A DNA stretch of 64,000 bases from Candidatus Omnitrophota bacterium. Its GTDB lineage: Bacteria > Omnitrophota > Gorgyraeia > Zapsychrales > Zapsychraceae. The stretch covers positions 83,998-147,997 of the forward strand of contig JAJDCA010000015.1 in NCBI GenBank assembly GCA_029261055.1. Reading direction: 5' to 3'. Numbering within the stretch: the stretch's first letter is position 1; each line of letters starts with the position of its first letter. Of this stretch, positions 3,231 to 26,954 are shown one piece after another. The notes below the pieces were generated by a model that was not told the DNA's origin, did no database searches, and saw only the letters and a list, made by a program, of their open reading frames with translations. A program made the position numbers and the translations under genes.

Positions 3231-6200
3231 ATGATTAATCAACACAACACAAAAGGTTTTCGGGCATTATTAACGACGCAGTTCTTGGGGGCGTTTAATG
3301 ATAATGCGTTTAAGTTTGTTATTGCCGCGTTCATTGTAGATTTGATGGATCAGGCTGGAGGAGGGACAGGGTATTTGGCCCTTTCCGGTGTTGTATTTGT
3401 CCTACCGTTTTTACTTTTTTCCACATTGGGAGGTTATTTAGCGGATCGGTTTAGTAAGCAGAAGATCATTGTGGGTACAAAGATCTTTGAGCTGATGGTT
3501 ATGGCGGTGGGATTTTGGGCCTTGCTGAGTGGGCATATTGGACCGATGTTGGTCGTGCTGTTTTTTATGGGTTTGCAAAGTTCTCTTTTTGGGCCTTCCA
3601 AATATGGAATCCTGCCGGAGATGTTAGATGATAAAGAGTTATCCGAGGGCAACGGTTTGCTGCAGATGTGGACGTATGTAGCGGTTCTCCTTGGACAGAT
3701 GAGTTATGGATTTATTATGCAAGTGACACAGCCGCACTATTACAGGGCGGCTTTTATTTTTATGGCTATTTCGGTATGTGGAATTTTGGCCAGTTTATTC
3801 GTAACGAAAGTAAAACCTTCGGGGAGTGTGCGTCGTCATCAGATGAATGTTTTTAAAGAGGTGTATCAAAACATTCAATGGATCAAAAAAGACAGAGGCA
3901 TATTTCTTTCGATCATTGGATTGATGTATTTTGGTTTTCTGGGCGGCTTGTTTCAACCGAATGTCTTGTTGTTTGCACGAAAGATTCTTCACGTCAGCCA
4001 TTTACAAACAGGTTTGCTGATTTCTTGTATGACGATTGGTCTTGGTCTTGGGTGCATGGTAGCAGGAAAGTTGTCGGATAGAAAAGTGGAGCTTGGCCTG
4101 GTGCCTATGGGGGCGATTGGTTTAAGTGTGTTTTCTATTGGGTTGGGGGTGGTGGCGAATTCGTATGTTTTATCTTTAATTGATATTTTTCTTTTAGGCC
4201 TTTCTTGCGGGTTTTACATTGTCCCTTTAAATACCTTGATTCAGCAGAGGAGTCCGAAAGAAAATAGAGGGCAAATATTAGCGACCAATAGTGTTTTATC
4301 TTTTTGTGCGATTCTTATTGGATCGCTTTTTTTGTATGTACTTCGAGATATTGTCCATCTTAATGCCGCGCAGATTTTTATTTTTACAGGACTGCTGACC
4401 ATTGTTGGTACGGGATACATCACCTCTTTATTACCCTATGCCCTTATTCGCTTTATCATTTGGATGATTACACATACCATCTACCGGATTAAAAGTGTGA
4501 ATCGTCAAAATGTGCCTGAACAGGGTGGAGCGCTTTTGGTATCAAATCATGTGGCCTACATTGATGCCGTGATGATGATCGTTACGGTGCCAAGGACGAT
4601 TCGGTTTATGGTGTACCGCGAGATTTATTACATCAAATGGCTGAATCCATTATTTCGACTAGCAGGCGCCATCCCTGTAGCTGGTATTGATCGTCCTAAA
4701 GAAATTATGAAAGCTATCCACACGGCACGGGAGGCCATTGCGCAAGGAGAGTTGGTCTGTATTTTTCCTGAGGGGCAATTAACACGGACAGGGAATATGT
4801 TGAAGTTTAACCGGGGGATGGAAAAGATTATGAAGGGATTGGATTGTCCGATTATCCCTGTGCATCTCGACCGTGTGTGGGGAAGTATTTTCAGTTATGA
4901 GCGTGGAAAGTATTTCTTTAAAATGCCAAAGACGATTCCGTATCCGATTACGGTATCTTACGGTACCCCCATGCCGGCGGAATCAACGGCCTATGCGGTG
5001 AGAAATAAAATTATGGAATTGGGCGCAGATTCTTTGCCGCATCGTTTATCGGAGAAATTAACATTACCAGAAGCTTTTTTTCAAGAAGCGCGTAAACATC
5101 CGAAACAATTTTGTGCGGCGGATTCAAGTGGAAAGAAATTAAGTTTTGCCGAAGTTCTAATTTCTTCTGTGGTTTTATCTTTAAAGTTAAAACCTACCCT
5201 TAACGATCAATCGAATATTGGTATTCTCATTCCGCCTTCAATCGGTGGTGTTATTTCGAATGTTGCAGTCGCTATTTTGAATAAGGTTCCGGTCAATATT
5301 AATTACACGGCTTCCAAAGAAGCGCTTCAATCTGTGTGTGAGCAATGTCAGATGACACATATTTTAACATCGCGGACCTTTATGGATAAGATAAAGATCG
5401 ATTTGCCGGTTGAGCCGATTTATATCGAAGATATCGTTAAGCATATTTCAAAATTTGATCAAGTTATTTCTGCGATAAAATCATTTATGTGGCCGCGGTT
5501 TATTTCGTATACATTGATTTTTGGAAGCAAAAAGAAACGGCATATTTCTGATTTAGCGACCATTATGTTTACCAGTGGTAGTACAGGACAGCCCAAGGGG
5601 GTGATGTTAACGCATGCGAATATCACATCAAATCTTGAAGGGTTGTATCAAATTTTTCATGTAAATAAAGAGGATAGCGTAATGGGTATCCTTCCATTTT
5701 TTCATTCCTTTGGATTTACAGCCACACTTTGGTTTCCCTTAATAAGCGGGATGGGCGCCGTGTATCATGCTAATCCTTTGGACGCCAAGATGATTGGCAA
5801 GTTAGTTGCCAAGCACAAAGCCACTATTTTGATGAGCACGCCGACATTTCTTAATGCTTATATTCGTCGATGTGAAAAAGAGCAATTTGTAAGTTTACGT
5901 ACTGTTGTCGTTGGGGCGGAGAAGCTAAAGGAGCAGGTGGCTCAAGCCTTTAAAGAAAAATTTAATCTTGAGGCCATGGAAGGATACGGCTGTACAGAAT
6001 TGGCGCCTATTGTTTCATTAAATCTTCCGGATTATCGTGCTAAGGGCGTGCGTCAAAAAGCACATAAGCAGGGTAAGATCGGGCTGCCGCTTCCCGGGAT
6101 TGCCGTGAAAGTTTTAAATCCGGATACATTGCAGCCAGTGGAAGTGAATCAAAATGGATTATTGTTTGTTAAAGGGCCGAATGTGATGAAGGGGTACTTA

Positions 6201-6626
6201 AACAAAGATGATTTGACCAAAGAAGTGATACACGATGGATGGTATACTACCGGGGATGTAGCCAATATGGATGAAGATGGATTCTTGATGATTACCGACC
6301 GCATGAGCCGTTTTAGCAAGATTGCCGGCGAGATGGTGCCGCATATTAAGATTGAAGAAACAATTCATGCCATTTTAAACTCTTCGGAGCAAGTCTGTGT
6401 GGTCACATCGGTGCCTGATGAGAAAAAAGGCGAGAAGCTAGCCGTGTTATGTTTGCGCGACGTGGATGTACCTTCTTTGGTGGATGAATTAAAAAATAGT
6501 GATCTCCCAAATTTATGGATACCCGATATTACGATGTTCCACCCCATAGATGCGATTCCTATTTTGGGAACAGGGAAATTGGATTTAGGGGCCATCAAAC
6601 AAAAGGCGAGGGACGTATTTGTTTAG
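3231..6626 (+). CDS. aas: Tri-functional fusion: MFS lysophospholipid transporter (LplT-like), 2-acyl-GPE / 1-acylglycerol-3-phosphate acyltransferase (PlsC domain) and AMP-binding acyl-ACP synthetase (Aas-like)
   Basis: 1131 aa. The N-terminal roughly 400 aa form a 12-TM MFS domain with an LplT-like N-terminus. The PlsC HX4D motif is NHVAYIDAV. The C-terminus has the AMP-binding signature TSGSTGQPKGV and an acyl-adenylate core. Confidence 0.85.
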   Translation: MINQHNTKGFRALLTTQFLGAFNDNAFKFVIAAFIVDLMDQAGGGTGYLALSGVVFVLPFLLFSTLGGYLADRFSKQKIIVGTKIFELMVMAVGFWALLSGHIGPMLVVLFFMGLQSSLFGPSKYGILPEMLDDKELSEGNGLLQMWTYVAVLLGQMSYGFIMQVTQPHYYRAAFIFMAISVCGILASLFVTKVKPSGSVRRHQMNVFKEVYQNIQWIKKDRGIFLSIIGLMYFGFLGGLFQPNVLLFARKILHVSHLQTGLLISCMTIGLGLGCMVAGKLSDRKVELGLVPMGAIGLSVFSIGLGVVANSYVLSLIDIFLLGLSCGFYIVPLNTLIQQRSPKENRGQILATNSVLSFCAILIGSLFLYVLRDIVHLNAAQIFIFTGLLTIVGTGYITSLLPYALIRFIIWMITHTIYRIKSVNRQNVPEQGGALLVSNHVAYIDAVMMIVTVPRTIRFMVYREIYYIKWLNPLFRLAGAIPVAGIDRPKEIMKAIHTAREAIAQGELVCIFPEGQLTRTGNMLKFNRGMEKIMKGLDCPIIPVHLDRVWGSIFSYERGKYFFKMPKTIPYPITVSYGTPMPAESTAYAVRNKIMELGADSLPHRLSEKLTLPEAFFQEARKHPKQFCAADSSGKKLSFAEVLISSVVLSLKLKPTLNDQSNIGILIPPSIGGVISNVAVAILNKVPVNINYTASKEALQSVCEQCQMTHILTSRTFMDKIKIDLPVEPIYIEDIVKHISKFDQVISAIKSFMWPRFISYTLIFGSKKKRHISDLATIMFTSGSTGQPKGVMLTHANITSNLEGLYQIFHVNKEDSVMGILPFFHSFGFTATLWFPLISGMGAVYHANPLDAKMIGKLVAKHKATILMSTPTFLNAYIRRCEKEQFVSLRTVVVGAEKLKEQVAQAFKEKFNLEAMEGYGCTELAPIVSLNLPDYRAKGVRQKAHKQGKIGLPLPGIAVKVLNPDTLQPVEVNQNGLLFVKGPNVMKGYLNKDDLTKEVIHDGWYTTGDVANMDEDGFLMITDRMSRFSKIAGEMVPHIKIEETIHAILNSSEQVCVVTSVPDEKKGEKLAVLCLRDVDVPSLVDELKNSDLPNLWIPDITMFHPIDAIPILGTGKLDLGAIKQKARDVFV

Positions 6627-11913: not shown

Positions 11914-12177
11914 ATGTCAAATTTGAGGGAAATATTTCATGAAATAGGTAATTGGCACAATAAAATAAGTATTGTGGCCGGTGTGACAAGAGATATATTG
12001 ACAGGCGAGGATATAGATGCCTTATCAAAAGATGAAATAAAAGAAAAAATTACAAAAATGGTTGATGGATTTAAGAAGATCGAAGATTATGTAATCAACA
12101 CGGATAAGACAATGAGCCATTTGAAGGCTTTTGTTTACAAACAATTAGATCCTGATGCAGAATGCAAGGCGGATTGA
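11914..12177 (+). CDS. Small acidic hypothetical protein (87 aa)
   Basis: Strong RBS (AAGGAGA, 7 nt spacer). I recognise no domain. It heads a three-gene + strand module. Confidence 0.45.
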   Translation: MSNLREIFHEIGNWHNKISIVAGVTRDILTGEDIDALSKDEIKEKITKMVDGFKKIEDYVINTDKTMSHLKAFVYKQLDPDAECKAD

Positions 12178-12186
12178 GGTAATAGG

Positions 12187-12408
12187 ATGTTTAGTTTTTA
12201 TGTTGTCGTATTTGGAATACTTTGCCTGATGCTATTGCTGCGTTCTAGCATAAGTTTGAAAGGCAAAGTTATTGGATTAGTAATAATAACTTCGGTTTTA
12301 TTATGGGTTGAAAAAACCCAATGGTGCACCTCATTAGCCTGGCGCGTGTGGTCGATGTTAAAATACTACGTAGCCCTTGCCGTTTATCATCTCAAGAATT
12401 TCCTATAA
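12187..12408 (+). CDS. Small hydrophobic (2-TM) hypothetical membrane protein (73 aa)
   Basis: GAGGT RBS 6 nt upstream. It starts 9 nt after the previous stop. Two hydrophobic helices. Confidence 0.4.
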   Translation: MFSFYVVVFGILCLMLLLRSSISLKGKVIGLVIITSVLLWVEKTQWCTSLAWRVWSMLKYYVALAVYHLKNFL

Positions 12409-12489
12409 AATACCCTCGCCAGTCATTTTTGATTTTCATATGTTATACTTCTTAATGAATATATATTAATATTAGAAGAAGTAATTATT

Positions 12490-14739
12490 ATGTTAAAAAG
12501 ACGACACAATCTATTGTTCCGTTTGATGGCTGTATTTGTGATAGGGGCGTTTTCGTTAAACCTTATCATACTGCCCGCACAATCTTACGCGCAGAGCCGG
12601 TCTTCTGCCAATCTACCTGTTCCTGGGACGATGATTCATCCGAGCGAGCCTTTTTCACCTGTCTTAATCAAAGGGGTAAAGGTCTTTTCAGATAATCCTT
12701 TTCGGTTTGATTTTATTGTTAATCCTGGAGATGATGATTTAGAAGGGGATGCTTTGAAGGAAGAGTCGAATCGATTAATTAAATATTTTTTGGCCTCGTT
12801 AACAATTCCAGAGAAGGATATGTGGGTGAATCTTTCGCCGTATGAGGCTGATCGGATTATTCCGGGAAAGTTTGGTGAAACAGAGATGGGGCGTGATATG
12901 TTAGCGCAAGATTACATTTTGAAACAATTGACAGCATCTTTGATGTACCCGGAAGGGGAGATCGGCGAAAAATTTTGGGAACGTGTGTACGCAGAGGCGT
13001 ACGAAAAATATGGTATTACAGATATTCCAGTTGATACATTCCATAAAGTGTGGATTTTGCCAGCCAAAGCTGTGGTGTATGAAAATGCAGAAAATAACAC
13101 GGCGTTTGTGATGGAGAGTCGATTGAAGGTGATGCTGGAGGAGGACTATTTGGCGATGGCGAATAATATGAATCGTAGGGGTTTGATTCATCAAACCCAA
13201 GACAAGGGCATGATAAATCATGCCCCTACGACAACCATCCTTCGCGAAATTATCCTCCCCGAAATCGAACGCGAAGTCAACGAAGGCAAACACTTCGCCC
13301 CTTTACGCCAAATCTATCATTCCCTTATCCTCGCCACATGGTTCAAACGCAATTTACAAGAAAGCCTTTTAGGCCAGGGATATGTCGGTAAGAATAAAGT
13401 CGAAGGCGTCAATATCGAAGACAAAAATGCCAAAGAAAAAATTTATCAACAGTATGTCGATGCCTTTAAAAAGGGCGTCTATGATTTAATCCGAGAAGAG
13501 TATGATCCTAATACCCAAGAAATTGTGCCACGTAAGTATTTTTCGGGGGGAATTGTGACGAATTTGAATGTGGGGGAGGTTTATGAGAGTCAAAAAGAGA
13601 ATTTTGATGTGGCGATGATGAATGATTCTAAGAAATTAATACAAGTAATTACAAATTTTATTAAATTAAATGAAGAGGATTTAATTTACAAAAATTTTCC
13701 TCTTGAAACAGGGCTTAATTTTGGAAAGATATCAAAATTAATTTCGGAGAAGGCTCATCAAACATTTCTTGATAACCACAAGAATGAGTTTGAATCTATG
13801 GGGTTTACAAATTTAAGACTTCGAGATGATATAGATAAAATGAAAGGAAAATCCGGGGCATATTTTTTTCGAGCAAAAGATAAGGAAAAGAAAGAAGTTA
13901 TGATTCGTATAGGAAATGGGATATTCCCCATTATTCACTTATTTAAAGGAAAGAAATCTCATCCTAATATTATGCAGGTTTATAAAAATGGAGAGCTAAA
14001 GGATGGACAGGGATTTATTGTCTTAGAATTTATAGAAGGAGAGAATCTTTCAGATTTTATTCAGAGAAAAGATCATATTACAGGTGAGGAGATTAAACGT
14101 GTTTTTTATCAACTTCTTTCTGCGCTTGAATATTTTATTCTTAATGACATTATATTTTCTGATTTTAAACCTGATAATATTAGAATTTCCAAAGATAAAA
14201 AGCAGGTTACTGTTATTGATTTTCATTCCGCAAAGAGTATGTATGATAAAGAATTTCAGAAGGATATTCAATTAGAACAGCCATTAGTGTTTATGAGTCG
14301 TGTAATTTTTAAATTAACACAACAATCTGTAAAAAATAATAGTGAATTGATTGAAATAAGAAAAGTAATAAATAGCATTCATGAATATTCTCAATATTTG
14401 GAAGAAAAAAATAAATTTGGAAATATCGAAGAAAAAAAAGATGTGTTTTTAGGTCGAATAAATATGTTTAAAGAATATGTCTCTGATCAAGCATCTCTTG
14501 TGAATAATGATCCGCTTGGTGGTATTGACTTTAATCCGCAGGACTTAGCTATTGAGACGCAGGGGGATGGGGTGCGTATGGGGTTAGGATTGAATAGTGT
14601 TCCTTGTGAGGAAGAGGGTGCAGATAGCTCTAAGCCCTGTCAGCGTTGGGATCCTCAGGTATTGGAGAGGTCGACAGGTTTAAGTCCTGTTATTTTGAAT
14701 GTTGTTCCGCTGGATGATTTATCTGCTTTCCTTAATTAA
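12490..14739 (+). CDS. Sec-exported 749-aa protein with an unknown N-terminal domain and a C-terminal degenerate protein-kinase-like (Hanks-type) domain
   Basis: Signal peptide (KRR...AQSYA). It carries kinase-like subdomain strings: HPNIMQVY; FIVLEFIEGENLSDFI; YQLLSALEYF...IIFSDFKPDNI (compare HRDLKPEN); VTVIDFH (compare DFG). There are marked compositional shifts within the gene. Confidence 0.6.
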   Translation: MLKRRHNLLFRLMAVFVIGAFSLNLIILPAQSYAQSRSSANLPVPGTMIHPSEPFSPVLIKGVKVFSDNPFRFDFIVNPGDDDLEGDALKEESNRLIKYFLASLTIPEKDMWVNLSPYEADRIIPGKFGETEMGRDMLAQDYILKQLTASLMYPEGEIGEKFWERVYAEAYEKYGITDIPVDTFHKVWILPAKAVVYENAENNTAFVMESRLKVMLEEDYLAMANNMNRRGLIHQTQDKGMINHAPTTTILREIILPEIEREVNEGKHFAPLRQIYHSLILATWFKRNLQESLLGQGYVGKNKVEGVNIEDKNAKEKIYQQYVDAFKKGVYDLIREEYDPNTQEIVPRKYFSGGIVTNLNVGEVYESQKENFDVAMMNDSKKLIQVITNFIKLNEEDLIYKNFPLETGLNFGKISKLISEKAHQTFLDNHKNEFESMGFTNLRLRDDIDKMKGKSGAYFFRAKDKEKKEVMIRIGNGIFPIIHLFKGKKSHPNIMQVYKNGELKDGQGFIVLEFIEGENLSDFIQRKDHITGEEIKRVFYQLLSALEYFILNDIIFSDFKPDNIRISKDKKQVTVIDFHSAKSMYDKEFQKDIQLEQPLVFMSRVIFKLTQQSVKNNSELIEIRKVINSIHEYSQYLEEKNKFGNIEEKKDVFLGRINMFKEYVSDQASLVNNDPLGGIDFNPQDLAIETQGDGVRMGLGLNSVPCEEEGADSSKPCQRWDPQVLERSTGLSPVILNVVPLDDLSAFLN

Positions 14740-14799: not shown

Positions 14800-15075
14800 T
14801 TATTCCATGAGTTTTTTGATAGCGTCTTTTTTTTCTTCGGGAAGGCATTTGTGGGAAGGAGGGGAGTCTTTTTCTAGGGCGGAGGTATATTGACCAAAAA
14901 TTTTATGAAAGCCGCGGAGTTGGCGGCGGTATTTGATGCACATTCGGCACATTATTAAATGTACATTGAGTTTTATGGTTTCACCGAAGGTTAGCTTTTC
15001 CTCAAGGCTTTTGGAAATCAATTCCGTGGCAATTCTACACGATGTAATATCTTTTAATTTCATGCTTTTATCCAA
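14800..15075 (-). CDS. Anti-sigma factor, zinc-binding ZAS type (RsrA/ChrR-like), soluble
   Basis: HxxxCxxC motif (HLIMCRMC) plus additional Cys residues. It overlaps the 3' end of the ECF sigma gene by 16 nt. Confidence 0.6.
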   Translation of the reverse strand: MDKSMKLKDITSCRIATELISKSLEEKLTFGETIKLNVHLIMCRMCIKYRRQLRGFHKIFGQYTSALEKDSPPSHKCLPEEKKDAIKKLME

Positions 15076-15647
15076 TGGGTATCAATGCAGTCCCTTAATA
15101 GGGAACGGGCGCGGTGGAGTAGTACGTAAAGGTTAGACGTCGTTATTCCCAGAATATTACAAATTTCTTTAACATTCATATGCTCAACTTCACGCATGGT
15201 GAATGCTTGAGCCCCTACAGCAGCGAGTTTTCCCAGGCACATCTCAAAAATTTTCCAGAATTCTTTTTTCTCTAGAAGTTCGTTTGGATTAGGAATCCAA
15301 TTGGACGGGCTTTTTTTGTGGCATTCTCGTTGCGCCATTTTAAATAAATGATCCACCGATAAATCGTCTATGTTGATTTGTTCTGATGAACGTGTTTTGT
15401 ATTTTGCCCGCAGAAAATCCATAATTTTATTTTTGAGAATACTGATCAACCAGGAAAATTCTGAGGCTTCACCACGGTATTGTTCACGTGCTTTAAAGGC
15501 GGAAAGAAATGTTTCCTGCACGAGGTCTTGAGCCACTTCGACTTTATTAATGCGTGATAAAGCGTAACGATAAAGGCGGTCGCCGTATAAATCCACCCAT
15601 TGTTTGGCATCCTGTGAAGAGTATTTTTTTGGAGAATTGTCTGTCAT
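15060..15647 (-). CDS. ECF (group IV) RNA polymerase sigma-70 factor
   Basis: Region 2 (DLVQETFLSAFKA...) and a region 4 HTH (ICNILGITTSNLYVLLHRARSLLR). Confidence 0.85.
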   Translation of the reverse strand: MTDNSPKKYSSQDAKQWVDLYGDRLYRYALSRINKVEVAQDLVQETFLSAFKAREQYRGEASEFSWLISILKNKIMDFLRAKYKTRSSEQINIDDLSVDHLFKMAQRECHKKSPSNWIPNPNELLEKKEFWKIFEMCLGKLAAVGAQAFTMREVEHMNVKEICNILGITTSNLYVLLHRARSLLRDCIDTHWIKA

Positions 15648-15836: not shown

Positions 15837-16217
15837 ATGAAAATGATGGGAGGAACAATGAAGAAACAACAAAGATTTGAAGAACACGTTAACGCCAATA
15901 TTAAGAATATTCTATTACCGCTTGTTGAGAAATTAATACTGCGATATGGGCAAGGCAAGGATTTGTTGCAGTTAAAAAAGGAGATTGAAAATATTGTCTC
16001 ATCTTATGGGATCACAATATCAGACCCAGCCTTCAGATTAACACGTAGAGAAATAGAAATTTGTAATATGATCCGAAATGGATTGACAACAAAGCAGATT
16101 GCCGATTTAATAAATATTTCGCCTATCACGGTCGAAAGGCATCGGAACAACATTCGAAAGAAATTTGGTATAAATAATGAAAAAGAAGTATTATCTGATT
16201 ATCTGCGAAGACTTTAG
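15837..16217 (+). CDS. LuxR/GerE-family HTH transcriptional regulator
   Basis: C-terminal HTH: LTRREIEICNMIRNGLTTKQIADLINISPITVERHRNNIRKK. Confidence 0.8.
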   Translation: MKMMGGTMKKQQRFEEHVNANIKNILLPLVEKLILRYGQGKDLLQLKKEIENIVSSYGITISDPAFRLTRREIEICNMIRNGLTTKQIADLINISPITVERHRNNIRKKFGINNEKEVLSDYLRRL

Positions 16218-16317
16218 TGCATGTTTTTTACAGGTTGTTAGGTTTTATATTTGTTGATATACTAAATTTTTTATAATCCTAAATATTTGGAAAATAATGA
16301 GTTAAAAGAATAAAGAT

Positions 16318-17445
16318 ATGTCTGCACATTTTCAAAGAAATGATATTGATTCAAATTCTTCTGTTTTCAAAATCAGCGGTGTTTTGAATTCAAAATCGGT
16401 GGGGCCGGTCTGGCGTCAAGCCATGCTTGCTTTAGATGATAATCCTCCTAAGAATCTCACTATCGATACTTCTGAGGTTGAGTATTGTGACGGGGCGGGG
16501 ATAGGATTGTTTATTGAGTTGAACCGGCGTCAAAATGAGAAGAAATTTGGTTTTGAAATTGTTGGTTTGAAAGAAGAGTTTCAGCGTTTATTGAATGTTT
16601 TTGATACAGGAAAAGGCATACAAAAGTTAAAAGGTCCAGAAAAGCAAGAAGACGGCCTATTTGTAAACTGGGGCAAGAGTTTTTGCAGCCTTTTGAAGCA
16701 GTTATCTGAAGAGATTATTTTTATCGGATCGCTTTCCTGTGCCATGATTCAGGCGATAAGATCACCTAAAAAGAAAATTCGTTGGAAAGATATGTGGGGG
16801 GCCGTTATCGAAGGCGGAATCGGCGCGCTACCGATTGTTGTCTTAATCAATTTCTTAGTAGGCCTTATTATGGCTTTTCAGGCGGCCATTCCGATGAAAC
16901 AGTTTGGAGCGGATATTTTTGTGGCTGATTTGGTGTCCTTATCTATTTTAAGGGAATTGGGCCCACTTATGACGGCGATTGTATTAGCGGGACGCACCGG
17001 TTCGGCTTTTGCTGCTGAATTGGGAACAATGAAAGTTAATGAAGAAATTGATGCGCTGCATACCATGGGGCTTAATCCGATTAACTTTCTTGTCATCAAT
17101 CGTGTTTTTGCCGTTATTATTTTTATGCCGATCTTAACACTTTTTGCTGATTTAGCCGGATTAATGGGGGGGTCGGTTGTTTTTACATCATTCGGCTATC
17201 CGATGATCACATATTTTAATCAAATCATAAATGCCGTTCAGTTGCACGATTTTCTGGGTGGATTTGTAAAATCATTTGCGTTTGCTTTAATTATAGCCTC
17301 TGTCGGATGTCTTAAAGGTTTAGAAACAAAAACAGGCGCAAGCGCCGTAGGAAAGTCTGCCACCAATGCCGTTGTGACCGGACTAATCCTTATTATTTTA
17401 ACCGATGGAATATTTTCCATCATTTATTATTTTTTAGGAATTTAA
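16318..17445 (+). CDS. mlaE: STAS-domain (MlaB-like) fused to the MlaE/YrbE ABC permease
   Basis: The N-terminal roughly 110 aa form a STAS/anti-sigma-antagonist fold. The C-terminal permease has the conserved MlaE core (LGPLMTAIVLAGRTGSAFAAELGTMKVNEEIDAL). Confidence 0.8.
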   Translation: MSAHFQRNDIDSNSSVFKISGVLNSKSVGPVWRQAMLALDDNPPKNLTIDTSEVEYCDGAGIGLFIELNRRQNEKKFGFEIVGLKEEFQRLLNVFDTGKGIQKLKGPEKQEDGLFVNWGKSFCSLLKQLSEEIIFIGSLSCAMIQAIRSPKKKIRWKDMWGAVIEGGIGALPIVVLINFLVGLIMAFQAAIPMKQFGADIFVADLVSLSILRELGPLMTAIVLAGRTGSAFAAELGTMKVNEEIDALHTMGLNPINFLVINRVFAVIIFMPILTLFADLAGLMGGSVVFTSFGYPMITYFNQIINAVQLHDFLGGFVKSFAFALIIASVGCLKGLETKTGASAVGKSATNAVVTGLILIILTDGIFSIIYYFLGI

Positions 17446-17453
17446 TGAGACAC

Positions 17454-17708
17454 GAAATCGCTTTCGAGAAAAGATTAACGCATTCGGCTCAGAAGAGATC
17501 TCCTTCTGGTCGATCTCTAATTCGTCTCATGCCTCAATCTTTTCTCTACGCGATTACGGCGCTTAATTTATAAAGTATCGGTCAACCCGTCTTATCAAGA
17601 GGTTGTGTTAAAGCCTGCAGGCGAATTGGAGGCCGAGCAGAACGAGGTCTCCTCTGAGCCGGAAGGTTTTAACACAACCTCCAATAGACGGGTTGACTTG
17701 AAAGTGTC
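17454..17708. repeat. Structured GC-rich intergenic repeat, copy A (about 255 bp), with a long nested hairpin GTCAACCCGTCT...AGACGGGTTGAC
   Basis: It shares its 5' module (GAAATCGCTTTCGAG.AAAGATTAACGCATTCGGCTCAGA), a CGCGATTACG core, and the terminal hairpin plus the TTGAAAGT tail with copy B. Confidence 0.6.
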
Positions 17709-17736
17709 TTTTAATTTTGACGCTATGGTTTAAATT

Positions 17737-18513
17737 ATGACTGAAAAGAAAAAAATTATTGAAGCTCGGAATATGAGTGTTGGGTATGGGGATACTGTTA
17801 TTCTTAAGGAAGTAACATTTCACGTCAATGAAGGGGAGATATTTATTATTCTTGGCGGGTCCGGTTGTGGGAAGAGTACTTTGTTAAAGAATCTTATTGG
17901 GCTTTATGACATTATTTCCGGGGATGCTTTGATTGATGGGCAGAATATTGGTAAAGCAGAAGGTCAGGAGTTGGTGAATATATTTAATAAAATTGGTGTT
18001 AGTTATCAAAGTGGGGCTTTATTTGGGTCTATGACTTTATTGGAAAATGTTATGCTTCCTTTAGAAGAGTTTACCGATCTTCCCCAAGATGCACGAGAGA
18101 TGATTGCGGCTATGAAGTTGCGGTTGGTTAATTTGGAAGGGTTTGAACATTTTATGCCATCTGAAATTTCCGGAGGGATGCAGAAGAGGGCGGCCATTGC
18201 CAGGTCCATGGCATTAGATCCACAAATTATATTTTTGGATGAGCCGTCAGCCGGGTTGGATCCGATAACATCGGCAGAGTTAGACCAATTGATTATGCGG
18301 TTAGCCAAGAATTTAGGCATTACTTTTGTTATTGTTACGCATGAGTTGGATAGTGTTTTTACCATTGCAGATCGATGTATTTTTTTAGATAAAGTATCCA
18401 AAGGGATTATTGCGGAAGGTCATCCGAAAGAATTGAAAGAACATTCAAAGGTAGACTTTGTTAAACGATTTTTTAATAGAGAAGTTGAAACAAATCAAAA
18501 GGAAAAAATATGA
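17737..18513 (+). CDS. mlaF: MlaF-like ABC transporter ATP-binding protein
   Basis: Walker A GGSGCGKST, signature LSGGMQKR, Walker B IIFLDEP. Confidence 0.85.
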   Translation: MTEKKKIIEARNMSVGYGDTVILKEVTFHVNEGEIFIILGGSGCGKSTLLKNLIGLYDIISGDALIDGQNIGKAEGQELVNIFNKIGVSYQSGALFGSMTLLENVMLPLEEFTDLPQDAREMIAAMKLRLVNLEGFEHFMPSEISGGMQKRAAIARSMALDPQIIFLDEPSAGLDPITSAELDQLIMRLAKNLGITFVIVTHELDSVFTIADRCIFLDKVSKGIIAEGHPKELKEHSKVDFVKRFFNREVETNQKEKI

Positions 18514-19358
18514 GTCAAAAAACACAGTATTTTAAAATTGGATTATTTATTCTTATTGGGAGTAGTATCCTTGTCGCCGGTATCATTGTATTAGGCGCCG
18601 GGAAAATATTTGAGAAGAAAATATATGTTGAAACATATTTTTCTACTTCAGTTCAGGGTATTGATATCGGAACGCCTATCAAATGCCGTGGGGTTAAAAT
18701 AGGAAAAGTCGATCAAATTAATATTGTTGGGGATGCTTATGATTTTGGTGGGGATATGGATAAATTTCGTAAATACGGGCTTTATGTGAGAGTACGAGGA
18801 GCTTTAAAAATCGGAGCGATATCCCTTATTACACAAAAATTAAACCAAAAGGAAATTGATCATTTAGTGCAAAATGAAGGTTTAAGATTAAAAATGGTTC
18901 CTTTGGGCATTACGGGGTTGTCATATTTAGAACTTGATTTCGGTAACGGCGAATATCCTCTTATGGATATTATTTGGAAACCAAAATTGGTGTATATTCC
19001 CTCGGTGCCCAATGAATTTGAAATGTTCATTAGAGGTTTGATGACTTTTTCAAAATCAATGAACGAAGACATTAAACCTATTTTGGAAAATTTACGGGAA
19101 GCATCGAAAAGTTTTCCTGAGACGACAAAAAATATCAATAAGGGCTTAGGAAGTGTTTCCGAATTAAGCACGAATTTAAATAGTGCTGTTATTAATGCGA
19201 ATAAGATTATGGGAGAGAATCAGCAGAATCTTAAAGAGACAATGAATAATATTAAATTTATTACCAATGATCTTCGGGATGTCTCTCAAGAATTAAAAAA
19301 TAATCCTTCGCGTGTCATTTTTGGAGAGGCCCCACCCAAACAGGGAGTTGAACGATAA
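18510..19358 (+). CDS. mlaD: MlaD / MCE-domain substrate-binding protein
   Basis: N-terminal TM anchor followed by an MCE domain. It overlaps the mlaF stop by 4 nt. Confidence 0.8.
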   Translation: MSQKTQYFKIGLFILIGSSILVAGIIVLGAGKIFEKKIYVETYFSTSVQGIDIGTPIKCRGVKIGKVDQINIVGDAYDFGGDMDKFRKYGLYVRVRGALKIGAISLITQKLNQKEIDHLVQNEGLRLKMVPLGITGLSYLELDFGNGEYPLMDIIWKPKLVYIPSVPNEFEMFIRGLMTFSKSMNEDIKPILENLREASKSFPETTKNINKGLGSVSELSTNLNSAVINANKIMGENQQNLKETMNNIKFITNDLRDVSQELKNNPSRVIFGEAPPKQGVER

Positions 19359-19969
19359 TGAAAAAAATATTTTTATATTGTATGTTATTTGCTAATTTTG
19401 TATTTTTAACGGGATGTGTGAGTCTAAACAAAGATTATCCGGACGTAAAAAGTTATTCCATTCGTATTCTTCGGGAAAAGAATAATGTTGTTCCCTCCAA
19501 AAGAATTACATTAAAGATTAATGCATTTGATATTGCAGAGCAGTTTGCAACCAAAAATCTTGTGTATAAAAAAGAGAAGTTGAATTTTAATGCGGATTAT
19601 TACAATCGATTCACATCTTATCCAGAAATCATGTTAGCTGATCAAATGCGTGAATGGTTCAGTAAAGCTCCCTTTATTAAAGAGGTAATCCTTCCCGAAG
19701 ACTCCAGAACAGCCAATTATTCAATCAATGCGTATATCAGTGAAATTTATGGTGATTTTTCTAAGCAAGAAAAACTCAAAGCTGTTATTAGCATAAAGTT
19801 AACTGTATTAGATGTTCAGAATGATGCAGTGGTTTTATCTAAGTTATACCGTGAAGAAATTAATCTTAAGAAAATGACAGTTTCAGAATTAATAGAAGGC
19901 TATCAGTCTGCTTTTAGGAAAGTTTTAGGGGTATTTGAATCGGATATAAATAAATTCACACATATTTAA
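19358..19969 (+). CDS. Lipoprotein, ABC-transport auxiliary component (DUF330-like) of the Mce/Mla operon
   Basis: Lipobox FLTGC after the signal peptide. About 200 aa. It abuts the mlaD stop. Confidence 0.6.
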   Translation: MKKIFLYCMLFANFVFLTGCVSLNKDYPDVKSYSIRILREKNNVVPSKRITLKINAFDIAEQFATKNLVYKKEKLNFNADYYNRFTSYPEIMLADQMREWFSKAPFIKEVILPEDSRTANYSINAYISEIYGDFSKQEKLKAVISIKLTVLDVQNDAVVLSKLYREEINLKKMTVSELIEGYQSAFRKVLGVFESDINKFTHI

Positions 19970-26245: not shown

Positions 26246-26354
26246 GAAAGGAGAATAGACCATAGAAAATAAATAAAATGAAAATACTTAGAATGAATAA
26301 ATAATAAAGTTTATTTTTAAACGGGTTATGTATAGCCCACAAAAAGGAGAGAAA

Positions 26355-26954
26355 ATGAAAAAAAGAATTATGGCATTATTAGCAGTAATGGTTTTAGGGA
26401 GTGTAACGATGGCTTCCGCTGGGGTGAAATACAAGTTGGATTATCCGCATACATCCATTGGATTTAAAGTAAAACATCTTGGAATCAGTTCGGTAAAAGG
26501 TAAATTTGATTCTTTCGACGGAGAACTTCAATTTGATGGCGAAAAATTAGTTTCTTTAGAGGGTAAAGTGGAAATTAACAGCGTTAACACGGGAAATGAA
26601 AAGCGTGACACACATCTTAAATCTGATGATTTCTTTTCGGCTAATACATTTCCATCCATGATGTTTAAAAGTACAAAGATTACTCACGAAGGCGATGATC
26701 TGTCTGTTGTTGGAGAATTGACTATCCGTGATGTTACAAAAGTTGTGACGCTTAAGGGTGAGTTTAATGGATTTGCCGATATGGAAATGAATGGAATGAA
26801 GATGAAAAAAACGGGTTTAGCTCTTCAAGGTTCAATCAATCGTAAGGATTTTGGATTAGCTTTTAATATGCTTAACGGCGCAGGGAATAAAGTTGTCGAT
26901 GATAAAGTCAATTTGACAATTGAAATTGAAGGTAATATGGATATGGGAATGTAG
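26355..26954 (+). CDS. YceI-like periplasmic protein (polyisoprenoid-binding family)
   Basis: Signal peptide followed by a YceI domain (HTSIGFKVKHLGISSVKGKF). AAGGAGAG RBS before the ATG at 26355 (ORF track start 26328). Confidence 0.75.
   Translation: MKKRIMALLAVMVLGSVTMASAGVKYKLDYPHTSIGFKVKHLGISSVKGKFDSFDGELQFDGEKLVSLEGKVEINSVNTGNEKRDTHLKSDDFFSANTFPSMMFKSTKITHEGDDLSVVGELTIRDVTKVVTLKGEFNGFADMEMNGMKMKKTGLALQGSINRKDFGLAFNMLNGAGNKVVDDKVNLTIEIEGNMDMGM

Follow-up and report, generated by a model that had tools for sequence, protein, structure and literature searches.

What might a bacterium of the phylum Omnitrophota do with a protein that combines an export signal with the sequence strings of a Hanks-type protein kinase? 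The question is raised by three consecutive genes in a 64,000-nucleotide stretch of Candidatus Omnitrophota DNA (contig JAJDCA010000015.1; hereafter the window), which encode an acidic protein of 87 amino acids (aa; denoted p87), a 73-aa protein with two predicted transmembrane (TM) segments (denoted p73) and a 749-aa protein with a kinase-like region. A first-pass annotation had interpreted the three genes as a single module. Our analysis points elsewhere: with a probability that we put at about 0.6, the 749-aa protein is a standalone member of an Omnitrophota family in which a conserved N-terminal domain (N-domain) and a short C-terminal tail form a common chassis that takes interchangeable enzymes out of the cytoplasm, in the manner of a phylum-wide export or delivery system.

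An Omnitrophota family with two conserved ends

Searching with the whole 749-aa protein returned more than 3,000 hits, the best of which were 55-73% identical over the ∼47% of the query that corresponds to the N-domain; a protein identical to the query (P0001) is also present in the database. With aa 36-357 alone as a phmmer query against 1.84 billion cluster representatives, so that the counts refer to clusters, at least 8,021 proteins were retrieved at E ≤ 1e-3, of which 6,224 also pass E ≤ 1e-30. The lengths of the retrieved proteins range from 420 to 4,969 aa, and their N-domain starts between residues 2 and 108, mostly at ∼20-75. When each prokaryotic species was represented by a single genome, a scan yielded 373 loci. 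The 80 of these that were listed all lie in metagenome-assembled genomes labelled Candidatus Omnitrophota (including Ca. Aceula) or "uncultured Planctomycetales", and they occur several to a genome, some of them in tandem. The family is restricted to Omnitrophota. Within the window, tblastn searches with the N-domain, the middle region and the tail found no further paralogue, and our literature search found no paper that mentions the N-domain, the tail or their motifs; this very large family of Omnitrophota exported proteins is apparently undescribed. Members are also carried by three IMG/VR contigs that are classed as viral (N-domain identity 53-58%), which may represent prophage-adjacent host DNA or a misclassification.

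An alignment of 120 N-domain sequences, including the query, contains 35 invariant and ∼70 near-invariant columns, and Gln35, just ahead of the domain, is at least 90% conserved across the family. No Pfam or NCBIfam model matches the N-domain, and neither the N-domain nor the tail has a match in PADLOC or PHROG. An origin from a defence system or a phage was rejected, as the kinase core is the only part of the protein that matches these collections and does so with generic models, and as members are present on no more than the three IMG/VR contigs. The AlphaFold2 model computed from the 120-sequence alignment has a predicted local distance difference test score (pLDDT) of 83.6 and a predicted template modelling score of 0.80. 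It consists of three long β-hairpins packed on about eight helices and includes two strands of 13 residues. A Foldseek comparison of this model with 350,542 chains gave nothing at E ≤ 0.001 (best E 0.26, TM-score ∼0.1), which suggests that the predicted fold is unlike any solved structure.

The second constant element is the tail of ∼65 aa, which follows the consensus GGID(L/F)NPxxLxLxTxGxxIxF, an optional two-Cys insert and G(F/L)xPVIxxIxPxxNLPxFLG. A short acidic extension follows it in most members; the query instead stops at FLN. The query tail (aa 672-749) matches those of 54 members with E values of 1e-13 to 1e-3. A hidden Markov model (HMM) of the tail detects exactly one copy in each protein and places it 1-78 residues from the C-terminus; this holds for 36 of the 39 complete open reading frames (ORFs) taken from genome loci and for 74 of the 86 representatives (700-4,969 aa), the remainder of which look mostly truncated. 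The architecture is thus a leader, an N-domain of ∼320 aa, an interchangeable cargo and the ∼65-aa tail, and the rule of one head and one tail holds across proteins of 700-5,000 aa; in size the query is an ordinary member. The first-pass annotation had noted an "unknown N-terminal domain" and a compositionally distinct last 240 nt. Both are real; what it missed is that these two stretches are conserved and together define a family of at least 8,000 clusters.

Searched against the database, the tail profile retrieved only 20 short proteins and no new architecture. These tail-only proteins (P0213-P0232) look mostly like split or remnant family genes, indicating that frameshifted or decaying members exist; one of them, a tail ORF of 127 aa (P0217; L088, 1684-4753), begins 2 nt past an 894-aa gene that bears an Aminotran_3 domain. 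In the full-length model of the query, 10-residue blocks of the tail from aa 681 to the C-terminus average pLDDT values of 67-94, with 87 for aa 721-740, and the tail contains a strand of 12 residues. Mean-field direct coupling analysis for contacts between the N-domain and the tail (185 sequences; effective number 159) returned insertion/deletion and gap artefacts as its top pairs.

We predict that the 749-aa protein and its family are exported, because they combine a Sec-type leader with a family-wide exclusion of Cys. The leader of the query, which the first pass had called a textbook signal, indeed has a basic n-region (K3, R4, R5 and R11), a hydrophobic core and a predicted cleavage site between SYA and QS. 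Among 167 family N-termini, 99% contain a hydrophobic 12-mer scoring above 1.6 on the Kyte-Doolittle scale, the mean net charge of the n-region is +3.4, and an A-Q/E site follows the hydrophobic region in 148. No TM-like segment occurs past the leader in 85% of the members of at least 600 aa, nor in the query. Cys accounts for 0.12% of family residues (466 in 381,927 aa), for 0.07% of the cargo regions (183,788 aa) and for 0.04% of the N-domain, compared with 1.03% in 202 non-family flanking ORFs and 1.18% in the other genes of the window; this is a 10-15-fold depletion relative to neighbouring genes. Family proteins of 3,500-3,700 aa contain one Cys each. The tails have either no Cys (174 tails) or exactly two, spaced 8-11 residues apart (18 tails), and the query has just Cys706 and Cys717, both in the tail insert. 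Exclusion of Cys in which only close pairs are tolerated is typical of extracytoplasmic proteins or of those translocated unfolded, such as autotransporter passengers and Gram-positive secretomes. The earlier proposal that the protein leaves the cytoplasm is thereby supported at the level of prediction.

Two further observations concern these features. Two other proteins encoded in the window are free of Cys and may also be exported, one of 872 aa (18-2636) with no Pfam match and one of 208 aa (26328-26954). Moreover, both junctions of the cargo are marked by an invariant Gly-Gly pair, one at the YFSGG end of the N-domain (G353-G354, 13546-13551) and one at the GGID start of the tail (G677-G678, 14518-14523). 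As a pure hypothesis, these pairs could be double-glycine processing sites. C39 peptidase domains have been reported on the giant proteins of Omnitrophota (10.1101/2023.11.21.568195; 10.64898/2026.06.07.730766).

Interchangeable cargo and its kinase-like representative

The regions between the two conserved ends are ∼300-4,500 aa long and mutually unrelated. By their Pfam matches they include GT2 glycosyltransferases, many S-adenosylmethionine (SAM) methyltransferases, phosphatases (Metallophos, PP2C, His_Phos and HAD), receiver (Response_reg) and HATPase_c domains, Lactamase_B, NUDIX, Macro and GNAT domains, DnaJ, HEAT, TPR and WD40 domains, peptidases (M3 and M48), APH/RIO-like and Pkinase domains, and PRK, CYTH, DHH, PPDK_N, GHMP kinase and UDP-glucose dehydrogenase domains. 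Many cargo regions have no Pfam match whatever. Judged from these assignments, the kinase is one cargo among many and not a unique oddity.

The most direct view of cargo exchange comes from two members lying 8 kb apart on one complete Omnitrophota chromosome (L037 and L056; OY759724.1, ∼745-763 kb). Their N-domains are 95.8% identical, and the similarity of their cargoes stops after 54 residues, so that the pair represents either a recent exchange of cargo or a gene duplication with later replacement. In many other pairs with N-domains of 82-86% identity, the cargo is dissimilar throughout or the tail alone is held in common. The mean N-domain identity is 72% within a genome versus 58% between genomes.

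The kinase strings pointed out by the first pass (HPNIMQVY, IIFSDFKPDNI and VIDFH) are all present, and their similarity to kinases is statistically real. The Pfam model Pkinase (PF00069) matches aa 485-588 with an E value of 2.4e-16 and 60.3 bits (cut-off 31.7), and this match spans positions 52-152 of the 263 profile positions only. The best matches among kinases in the PDB, namely Snf1, AMPK, CDPK and PknB, have E values of ∼3e-9 and the same span. A local HMM built from seven kinases likewise matches the core at positions 79-176 of 286 only, and the generic kinase models of PADLOC and PHROG (PD-T4-6, mad6 and phrog_2361) match aa 488-590. A weak NCBIfam match relates the kinase part to Bud32 (E 0.006). 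Profile searching therefore finds kinase homology and confines it to aa 485-590, with HPNIMQVY at aa 491-498, FSDFKPDN at aa 556-563 and DFH at aa 577-579.

In the alignments to Snf1 and to the kinase HMM, FSD558-F-K560-P-D-N563 falls on HRDLKPEN and D577-F-H falls on DFG. Accordingly, the catalytic-loop residues Asp558, Lys560 and Asn563 and the metal-binding Asp577 are kept, and other residues stand in for His and Arg in HRD and for Gly in DFG. The former description of the HRD, DFG and APE motifs as degenerate is correct for the changes to FSD and DFH and for the missing APE, but it overstated the loss, because these four residues are intact. Upstream of aa 485, neither the Pfam model nor the local HMM aligns with an N-lobe, that is, with a Gly-loop, a β3 Lys or an αC Glu. 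When the query is aligned pairwise with P0063, a paralogue that bears a kinase, GKSGAY falls on the Gly-loop and VMIR473I on VAIK, with Arg replacing Lys; the catalytic Asp is thus in place (D558), whereas the position of the ATP-binding Lys is taken by R473. Between R473 and H491 there are 17 residues without a single Glu, which therefore leave no room for a normal αC helix with its Glu. Past DFH there is no APE motif and no recognisable C-lobe, and the model, of low confidence there, has three long helices in this part.

Only six hits were obtained when the middle region (aa 361-665) was searched against the database; each covers ∼30% of it, with 34-46% identity over ∼95 aa, and the best (P0121) is a bacterial-type kinase. 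From these partial hits it follows that the cargo is an orphan around a kinase core of ∼100 aa; none of the compared family members contains a counterpart of the cargo region of the 749-aa protein. In terms of sequence, the kinase part represents genuine but incomplete Hanks-type homology, which would make it a partial member of that superfamily. The cargo may be a minimal atypical or small-molecule kinase or else a pseudokinase, since D558, K560, N563 and D577 are kept and the Lys-Glu pair and the substrate-binding C-lobe are unrecognisable.

Two side observations relate to the kinase motifs. The tail motif GGIDLNPxNLxLxxxGxxIxF (14515-14580) resembles the stretch from catalytic loop to DFG, DLKPENILLxxxGxIKLxDFG (14155-14226), to the extent that MAFFT aligned real kinases to the tail; the resemblance is probably a coincidence. 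The paralogue P0063, whose Pkinase cargo is fuller (L001, 1-11430; UOGJ01000029.1), lies within a lipid A and lipopolysaccharide (LPS)-core cluster with Glycos_transf_N/WaaA, LpxK, a lipid A acyltransferase, a GT4 and a GT9 heptosyltransferase-like gene. By analogy with WaaP-type kinases, this context makes envelope glycolipids a conceivable target of some kinase cargoes.

The nucleotide composition of the 749-aa gene follows the same modular layout. The N-domain has a GC content at third codon positions (GC3) of 0.435, as opposed to 0.211 for the middle and 0.369 for the last 84 codons (total GC 0.46); the 42 other genes of the window have 0.346 ± 0.044 (minimum 0.265). In windows of 300 nt, the middle has GC3 values of 0.16-0.22, under the first percentile (0.24) of all genic windows, and the stretch encoding aa 151-250 reaches 0.51-0.55, at about the 99th percentile. 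The nucleotide mosaic described at first reading is hence confirmed beyond chance. Its GC borders are the module borders (12595-13560, 13561-14484 and 14503-14736). Across the family, the N-domain has a higher GC3 than the cargo in 73 of 82 genes, with a mean difference of +0.086; the gap of 0.224 in the query is matched or surpassed in four of the 82. The mosaic reflects domain shuffling, as the annotation had suggested, because the GC borders fall on module borders and near-identical N-domains carry unrelated cargo. Gene conversion among paralogues could, we infer, raise GC3 too.

The locus and its neighbours

The coordinates of the locus are compiled in Table 1. The first-pass description of three ORFs with strong ribosome-binding sites on the two small ones holds: the Shine-Dalgarno sequence is AGGAGA for p87 and GAGGT for p73, each with a spacer of 6 nt. 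The start of the 749-aa gene is preceded by just a weak purine run, with no strong ribosome-binding site, and an AT-rich spacer of 81 nt with a promoter-like site separates it from p73.

Table 1. Features of the 749-aa gene and its neighbours (window coordinates; p87-like genes in coordinates of their own contigs)
Feature	Position	Strand	Remarks
p87 ORF, 87-aa acidic protein	11914-12177	+	H-box/DHp-like (FHEIGNWHNKI); outside the family system
p73 ORF, 73 aa, predicted 2-TM	12187-12408	+	starts 9 nt past p87; putative orphan
749-aa family member	12490-14739	+	leader, N-domain, kinase-like cargo and C-terminal tail
Sec-type signal peptide, aa 1-34	12490-12591	+	predicted cleavage between SYA and QS
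Conserved N-domain, aa 36-357	12595-13560	+	C-terminal end ...PRKYFSGG; predicted fold without solved-structure match
Variable cargo, aa 358-665	13561-14484	+	AT-rich: GC 0.276, GC3 0.211
Kinase-homologous core, aa 485-590, subdomains IV-VII	13942-14259	+	Pfam Pkinase, PDB, PADLOC, PHROG, local HMM
Catalytic loop FSDFKPDN; DFH	14155-14178; 14218-14226	+	inside the kinase core
Candidate degenerate N-lobe	13846-13911	+	GKSGAY aa 453-458; VMIRI aa 470-474; pairwise alignment to P0063 only
Conserved C-terminal tail, aa 672-749	14503-14736	+	LGGIDFNP ... PC-x11-C insert ... GLSPVILNVVPLDDLSAFLN
p87-like gene, contig L083	1802-2086		
p87-like gene, contig L084	1085-1369		
p87-like gene, contig L085	5001-5285		

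Together with its homologues, p87 makes up a small family of conserved proteins of ∼90 aa. Homologues of p87 with 42-46% identity were found in three metagenome contigs, where they stand in a fixed order: histidine kinase (HK), response regulator (RR), p87-like protein, RR and a second small H-box-like protein (...HHIRNEL...). The p87 segment FHEIGNWHNKI aligns to the H-box of the clustered HK with a pairwise E value of 0.004, and p87 itself stands in the window without HK or RR partners. By these similarities, p87 is a two-component-type protein with an H-box like that of dimerization and histidine phosphotransfer (DHp) domains, and the clusters may represent a phosphorelay from stand-alone DHp-like proteins. 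A comparison with secretion chaperones made in the first pass did not survive, because of the H-box alignment and the occurrence of the homologues in HK-RR clusters; none was found near family genes. The p73 protein has no match in Pfam, NCBIfam, PADLOC or PHROG and no homologue at the loci of the p87 homologues.

The flanks of 82 family loci contain no homologue of p87, of p73 or of the DUF2339 membrane protein encoded upstream of them. Clustering of all ORFs in the ±4-kb surroundings of 81 loci revealed no recurrent partner: the largest non-family cluster covers four loci, and the flanks consist of ordinary housekeeping genes. Small-gene distribution thus speaks against the proposed three-gene module, with p87 homologues only in HK/RR clusters that lack a family gene and p73 homologues at neither kind of locus, and p87 and p73 are neighbours unrelated to the family.

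The wider surroundings of the 749-aa gene comprise an LplT-Aas fusion, an esterase, an AAA ATPase, the DUF2339 protein, an extracytoplasmic function (ECF) sigma factor with a putative anti-sigma factor, a LuxR-type regulator and the Mla system. The fusion is an ORF of 1,131 aa (3231-6626) that joins a major facilitator superfamily transporter (LplT-like), an acyltransferase and an AMP-binding acyl-acyl carrier protein synthetase (Aas-like) and is followed by a DUF676 esterase; its domain content predicts a lysophospholipid-recycling module in one polypeptide. On the minus strand at 14800-15647, convergent with the 3' end of the 749-aa gene, lie the ECF sigma factor (195 aa) and an overlapping Cys-rich protein of 91 aa, a putative zinc-finger anti-sigma factor with no Pfam match. 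A LuxR-type helix-turn-helix protein and an MlaE/F/D operon lie beyond, at 15837-19969.

Possible roles and related systems

In the role that we favour, the chassis of N-domain and tail would target, anchor or deliver a payload beyond the cytoplasm of the producer, the payload being an enzyme domain of an otherwise cytoplasmic type. By analogy with polymorphic effectors, the payload would most likely act at the surface or in the interior of a host or prey cell, because ATP, SAM or nucleotide sugars are required by many cargoes and because Omnitrophota have been proposed to be predators or parasites. New members would arise by recombination within the conserved bookends, and the whole family would constitute a recombining effector arsenal against host or prey. 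Most Omnitrophota are proposed to be predators or parasites (Seymour et al. 2023, PMC10066038); predator RNA has been seen inside prey cells, and transfer of material is documented for one species (Kizina et al. 2026, PMC13153191). A more specific version, which we put forward tentatively and at well under even odds, holds that the N-domain and the tail are recognition elements of an Omnitrophota-specific export and delivery pathway for kinases, methyltransferases, nucleotide-using enzymes and receiver domains, or else mediate head-to-tail self-assembly, that the Gly-Gly junctions are processing sites from which the cargo is released and that the members, including the kinase-like protein, form an effector arsenal.

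Several points weigh against this interpretation. Delivery into another cell is suggested only by the cofactor needs of the cargo and by published lifestyle proposals. The family genes have no dedicated partner gene beside them that might encode a chassis-recognising machinery. Depletion of Cys fits equally well with proteins kept in the periplasm or on the surface, export itself being predicted. The similarity of N-domains within genomes fits recent local expansion as well as gene conversion. Finally, the kinase fold is no more than a candidate, as the model has pLDDT values below 50 over aa 440-596 and the alignment of that part is noise.

These points give room to other accounts. Rather doubtful, but a serious contender, is the idea that the proteins are exported and yet kept by the producer: the N-domain would anchor them to the outer membrane, LPS or an envelope lipid, the tail would be a sorting or retention signal, and the cargo would remodel the cell's own surface. 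The position of P0063 among LPS genes (WaaA, LpxK, acyltransferase, GT4 and GT9), the lipid-homeostasis genes that flank the query (LplT-Aas and Mla) and the glycosyl- and methyltransferases among many cargoes are all consistent with it. Cargoes dependent on ATP, SAM or UDP-sugars would, however, have no obvious cofactor supply outside the cytoplasm, and the flanks of the 81 loci consist for the most part of unrelated housekeeping genes, among which no envelope partner recurs. Proximity to cofactors is what an uncleaved leader would provide, with the hydrophobic segment serving as an anchor and the N-domain and cargo acting inside the producer. The cargo domains are indeed typical cytoplasmic enzymes and signalling domains, and a 2026 preprint raises the same puzzle for giant proteins (10.64898/2026.06.07.730766). 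Nevertheless, the strongly positive n-region predicts an N-in/C-out orientation, the A-Q/E site is conserved in most leaders, and the Cys pattern is of the extracytoplasmic type, so that we regard such tethering as very improbable. Quite improbable, too, is a scaffold in which the tail strand (GLSPVILNVVPL) docks on the N-domain sheet of another member, comparable to donor-strand exchange in pili, and thus builds a head-to-tail extracellular multi-enzyme fibre, which would then be a non-covalent counterpart of the giant proteins of Omnitrophota. It would account for one N-domain and one tail per protein at any length, and it draws on the confidently modelled tail with its 12-residue strand, on the two 13-residue strands of the N-domain and on the domain repertoire shared with the giant proteins (10.1101/2023.11.21.568195); the covariation attempt that bears on it was swamped by gap artefacts.

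Two further accounts concern the 749-aa gene itself. Its middle has a lower GC3 than every other gene of the window, its GC3 gap is equalled or exceeded in few family genes, the database hits include EF-hand CDPK-like kinases (P0122, P0124 and P0126) and the best PDB matches are Snf1, AMPK and CDPK, all of which would fit a recent horizontal transfer in which an AT-rich donor supplied a kinase fragment of eukaryote type (CAMK/CDPK-like), with a mosaic specific to this gene. We consider this improbable, given that the identity to these kinases is low and confined to ∼95 aa, that the best hit is of the bacterial type, that the contrast between N-domain and cargo GC3 is family-wide and that a composition rich in Lys, Asn, Ile and Phe accounts for part of the low GC. 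The original notion of a three-gene secretion or effector module, with p87 as chaperone, p73 as membrane component and the kinase-like protein as effector, is largely refuted and retains hardly any credence. In its favour, the three genes lie side by side on one strand, with a gap of 9 nt between p87 and p73 and strong Shine-Dalgarno sequences on both; against this stand the absence of p87 or p73 homologues and of any other conserved neighbour from the flanks of the 82 family loci, the H-box alignment and HK-RR-p87-RR clusters without a family gene, and the promoter-like spacer ahead of the 749-aa gene.

The proposed chassis shares individual features with several known systems. Polymorphic toxins (Rhs, CdiA, MafB and LXG) combine a conserved trafficking module with a swappable toxin, and they resemble the family in their recombining, non-homologous payloads, in the many paralogues per genome and in near-identical conserved parts that carry unrelated payloads. 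In contrast to the toxins, which have the payload at the C-terminal tip, the payload here lies in mid-protein between bookends and consists of metabolic and signalling enzymes instead of nucleases, deaminases or pore formers; no immunity, accessory or secretion gene is conserved next to the 81 loci (±4 kb). Cargo proteins of the type IX secretion system (T9SS) of Bacteroidota consist of a Sec signal peptide, functional domains and a conserved C-terminal domain of ∼70-100 aa. The likeness extends to the Sec leader, to the great variety of functional domains and to a short conserved element at the extreme C-terminus that is common to paralogous cargo of one phylum. T9SS cargo, however, lacks a conserved 320-aa N-terminal domain and consists largely of hydrolases and adhesins that work outside the cell, rather than of enzymes that depend on ATP or SAM. 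No T9SS C-terminal domain model of NCBIfam or Pfam matches at E ≤ 1, and to our knowledge the system is not known in Omnitrophota.

Classical (type Va) autotransporters, composed of a leader, a variable passenger and a conserved C-terminal translocator, likewise have a Sec leader, a variable middle, a conserved C-terminal element and few Cys with only close pairs. They differ in that their β-barrel of 250-300 aa is far larger than the C-terminal element of ∼65-80 aa seen here and in that they have no conserved N-domain; no match to the Pfam Autotransporter model was found. Minimal kinases provide a further parallel, as Shigella OspG and E. coli NleH are minimal secreted kinase effectors and Bud32 and RIO are small atypical kinases. 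Hanks-type and minimal kinases have in common with the cargo the homology in subdomains IV-VII, the D-x-K-x-x-N motif with the metal-binding Asp and, putatively, a short, non-canonical C-lobe past DFG. The cargo departs from them in lacking a profile-detected Gly-loop, β3 Lys and αC Glu, in having FSD and DFH and in being embedded between the N-domain and the tail.

The giant proteins of the same phylum ('Archaeovorins' and others), for which a role in the interaction with prey has been proposed (West-Roberts et al. 2023, 10.1101/2023.11.21.568195; 2026 preprint, 10.64898/2026.06.07.730766), also carry methyltransferase, glycosyltransferase, NUDIX, HATPase, PPDK_N, HAD and receiver domains behind signal peptides or TM helices. 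Their length of 10,000 to over 85,000 aa, their numerous TM helices and their SecA-like or C39 domains set them apart from the bookend family of 700-5,000 aa, whose members are mostly TM-free past the leader. Compared by published description, the papers on giant proteins do not mention the N-domain and tail that define the family. Taken together, these comparisons of sequence and design suggest that the family follows a modular logic akin to that of exported, polymorphic effectors, with a carrier domain of a putatively new fold and an unusual two-bookend design.

The Omnitrophota are nanobacteria that are widespread and uncultured, and their action on hosts has so far been approached mainly through giant genes. 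The family described here offers a tractable handle: it comprises at least 8,000 clusters, genomes carry several to many copies, and the proteins are small enough to express; its conserved modules suit reporter fusion, and the catalogue of payloads predicts the host processes that are targeted. It also explains why many "hypothetical" Omnitrophota proteins resemble cytoplasmic enzymes with signal peptides, and with a profile built from the N-domain and tail, thousands of proteins that now lack an annotation would receive one. If the more specific version of the proposed role is true, a previously unknown pathway moves Cys-free enzymes of cytoplasmic type onto or into prey or host cells.

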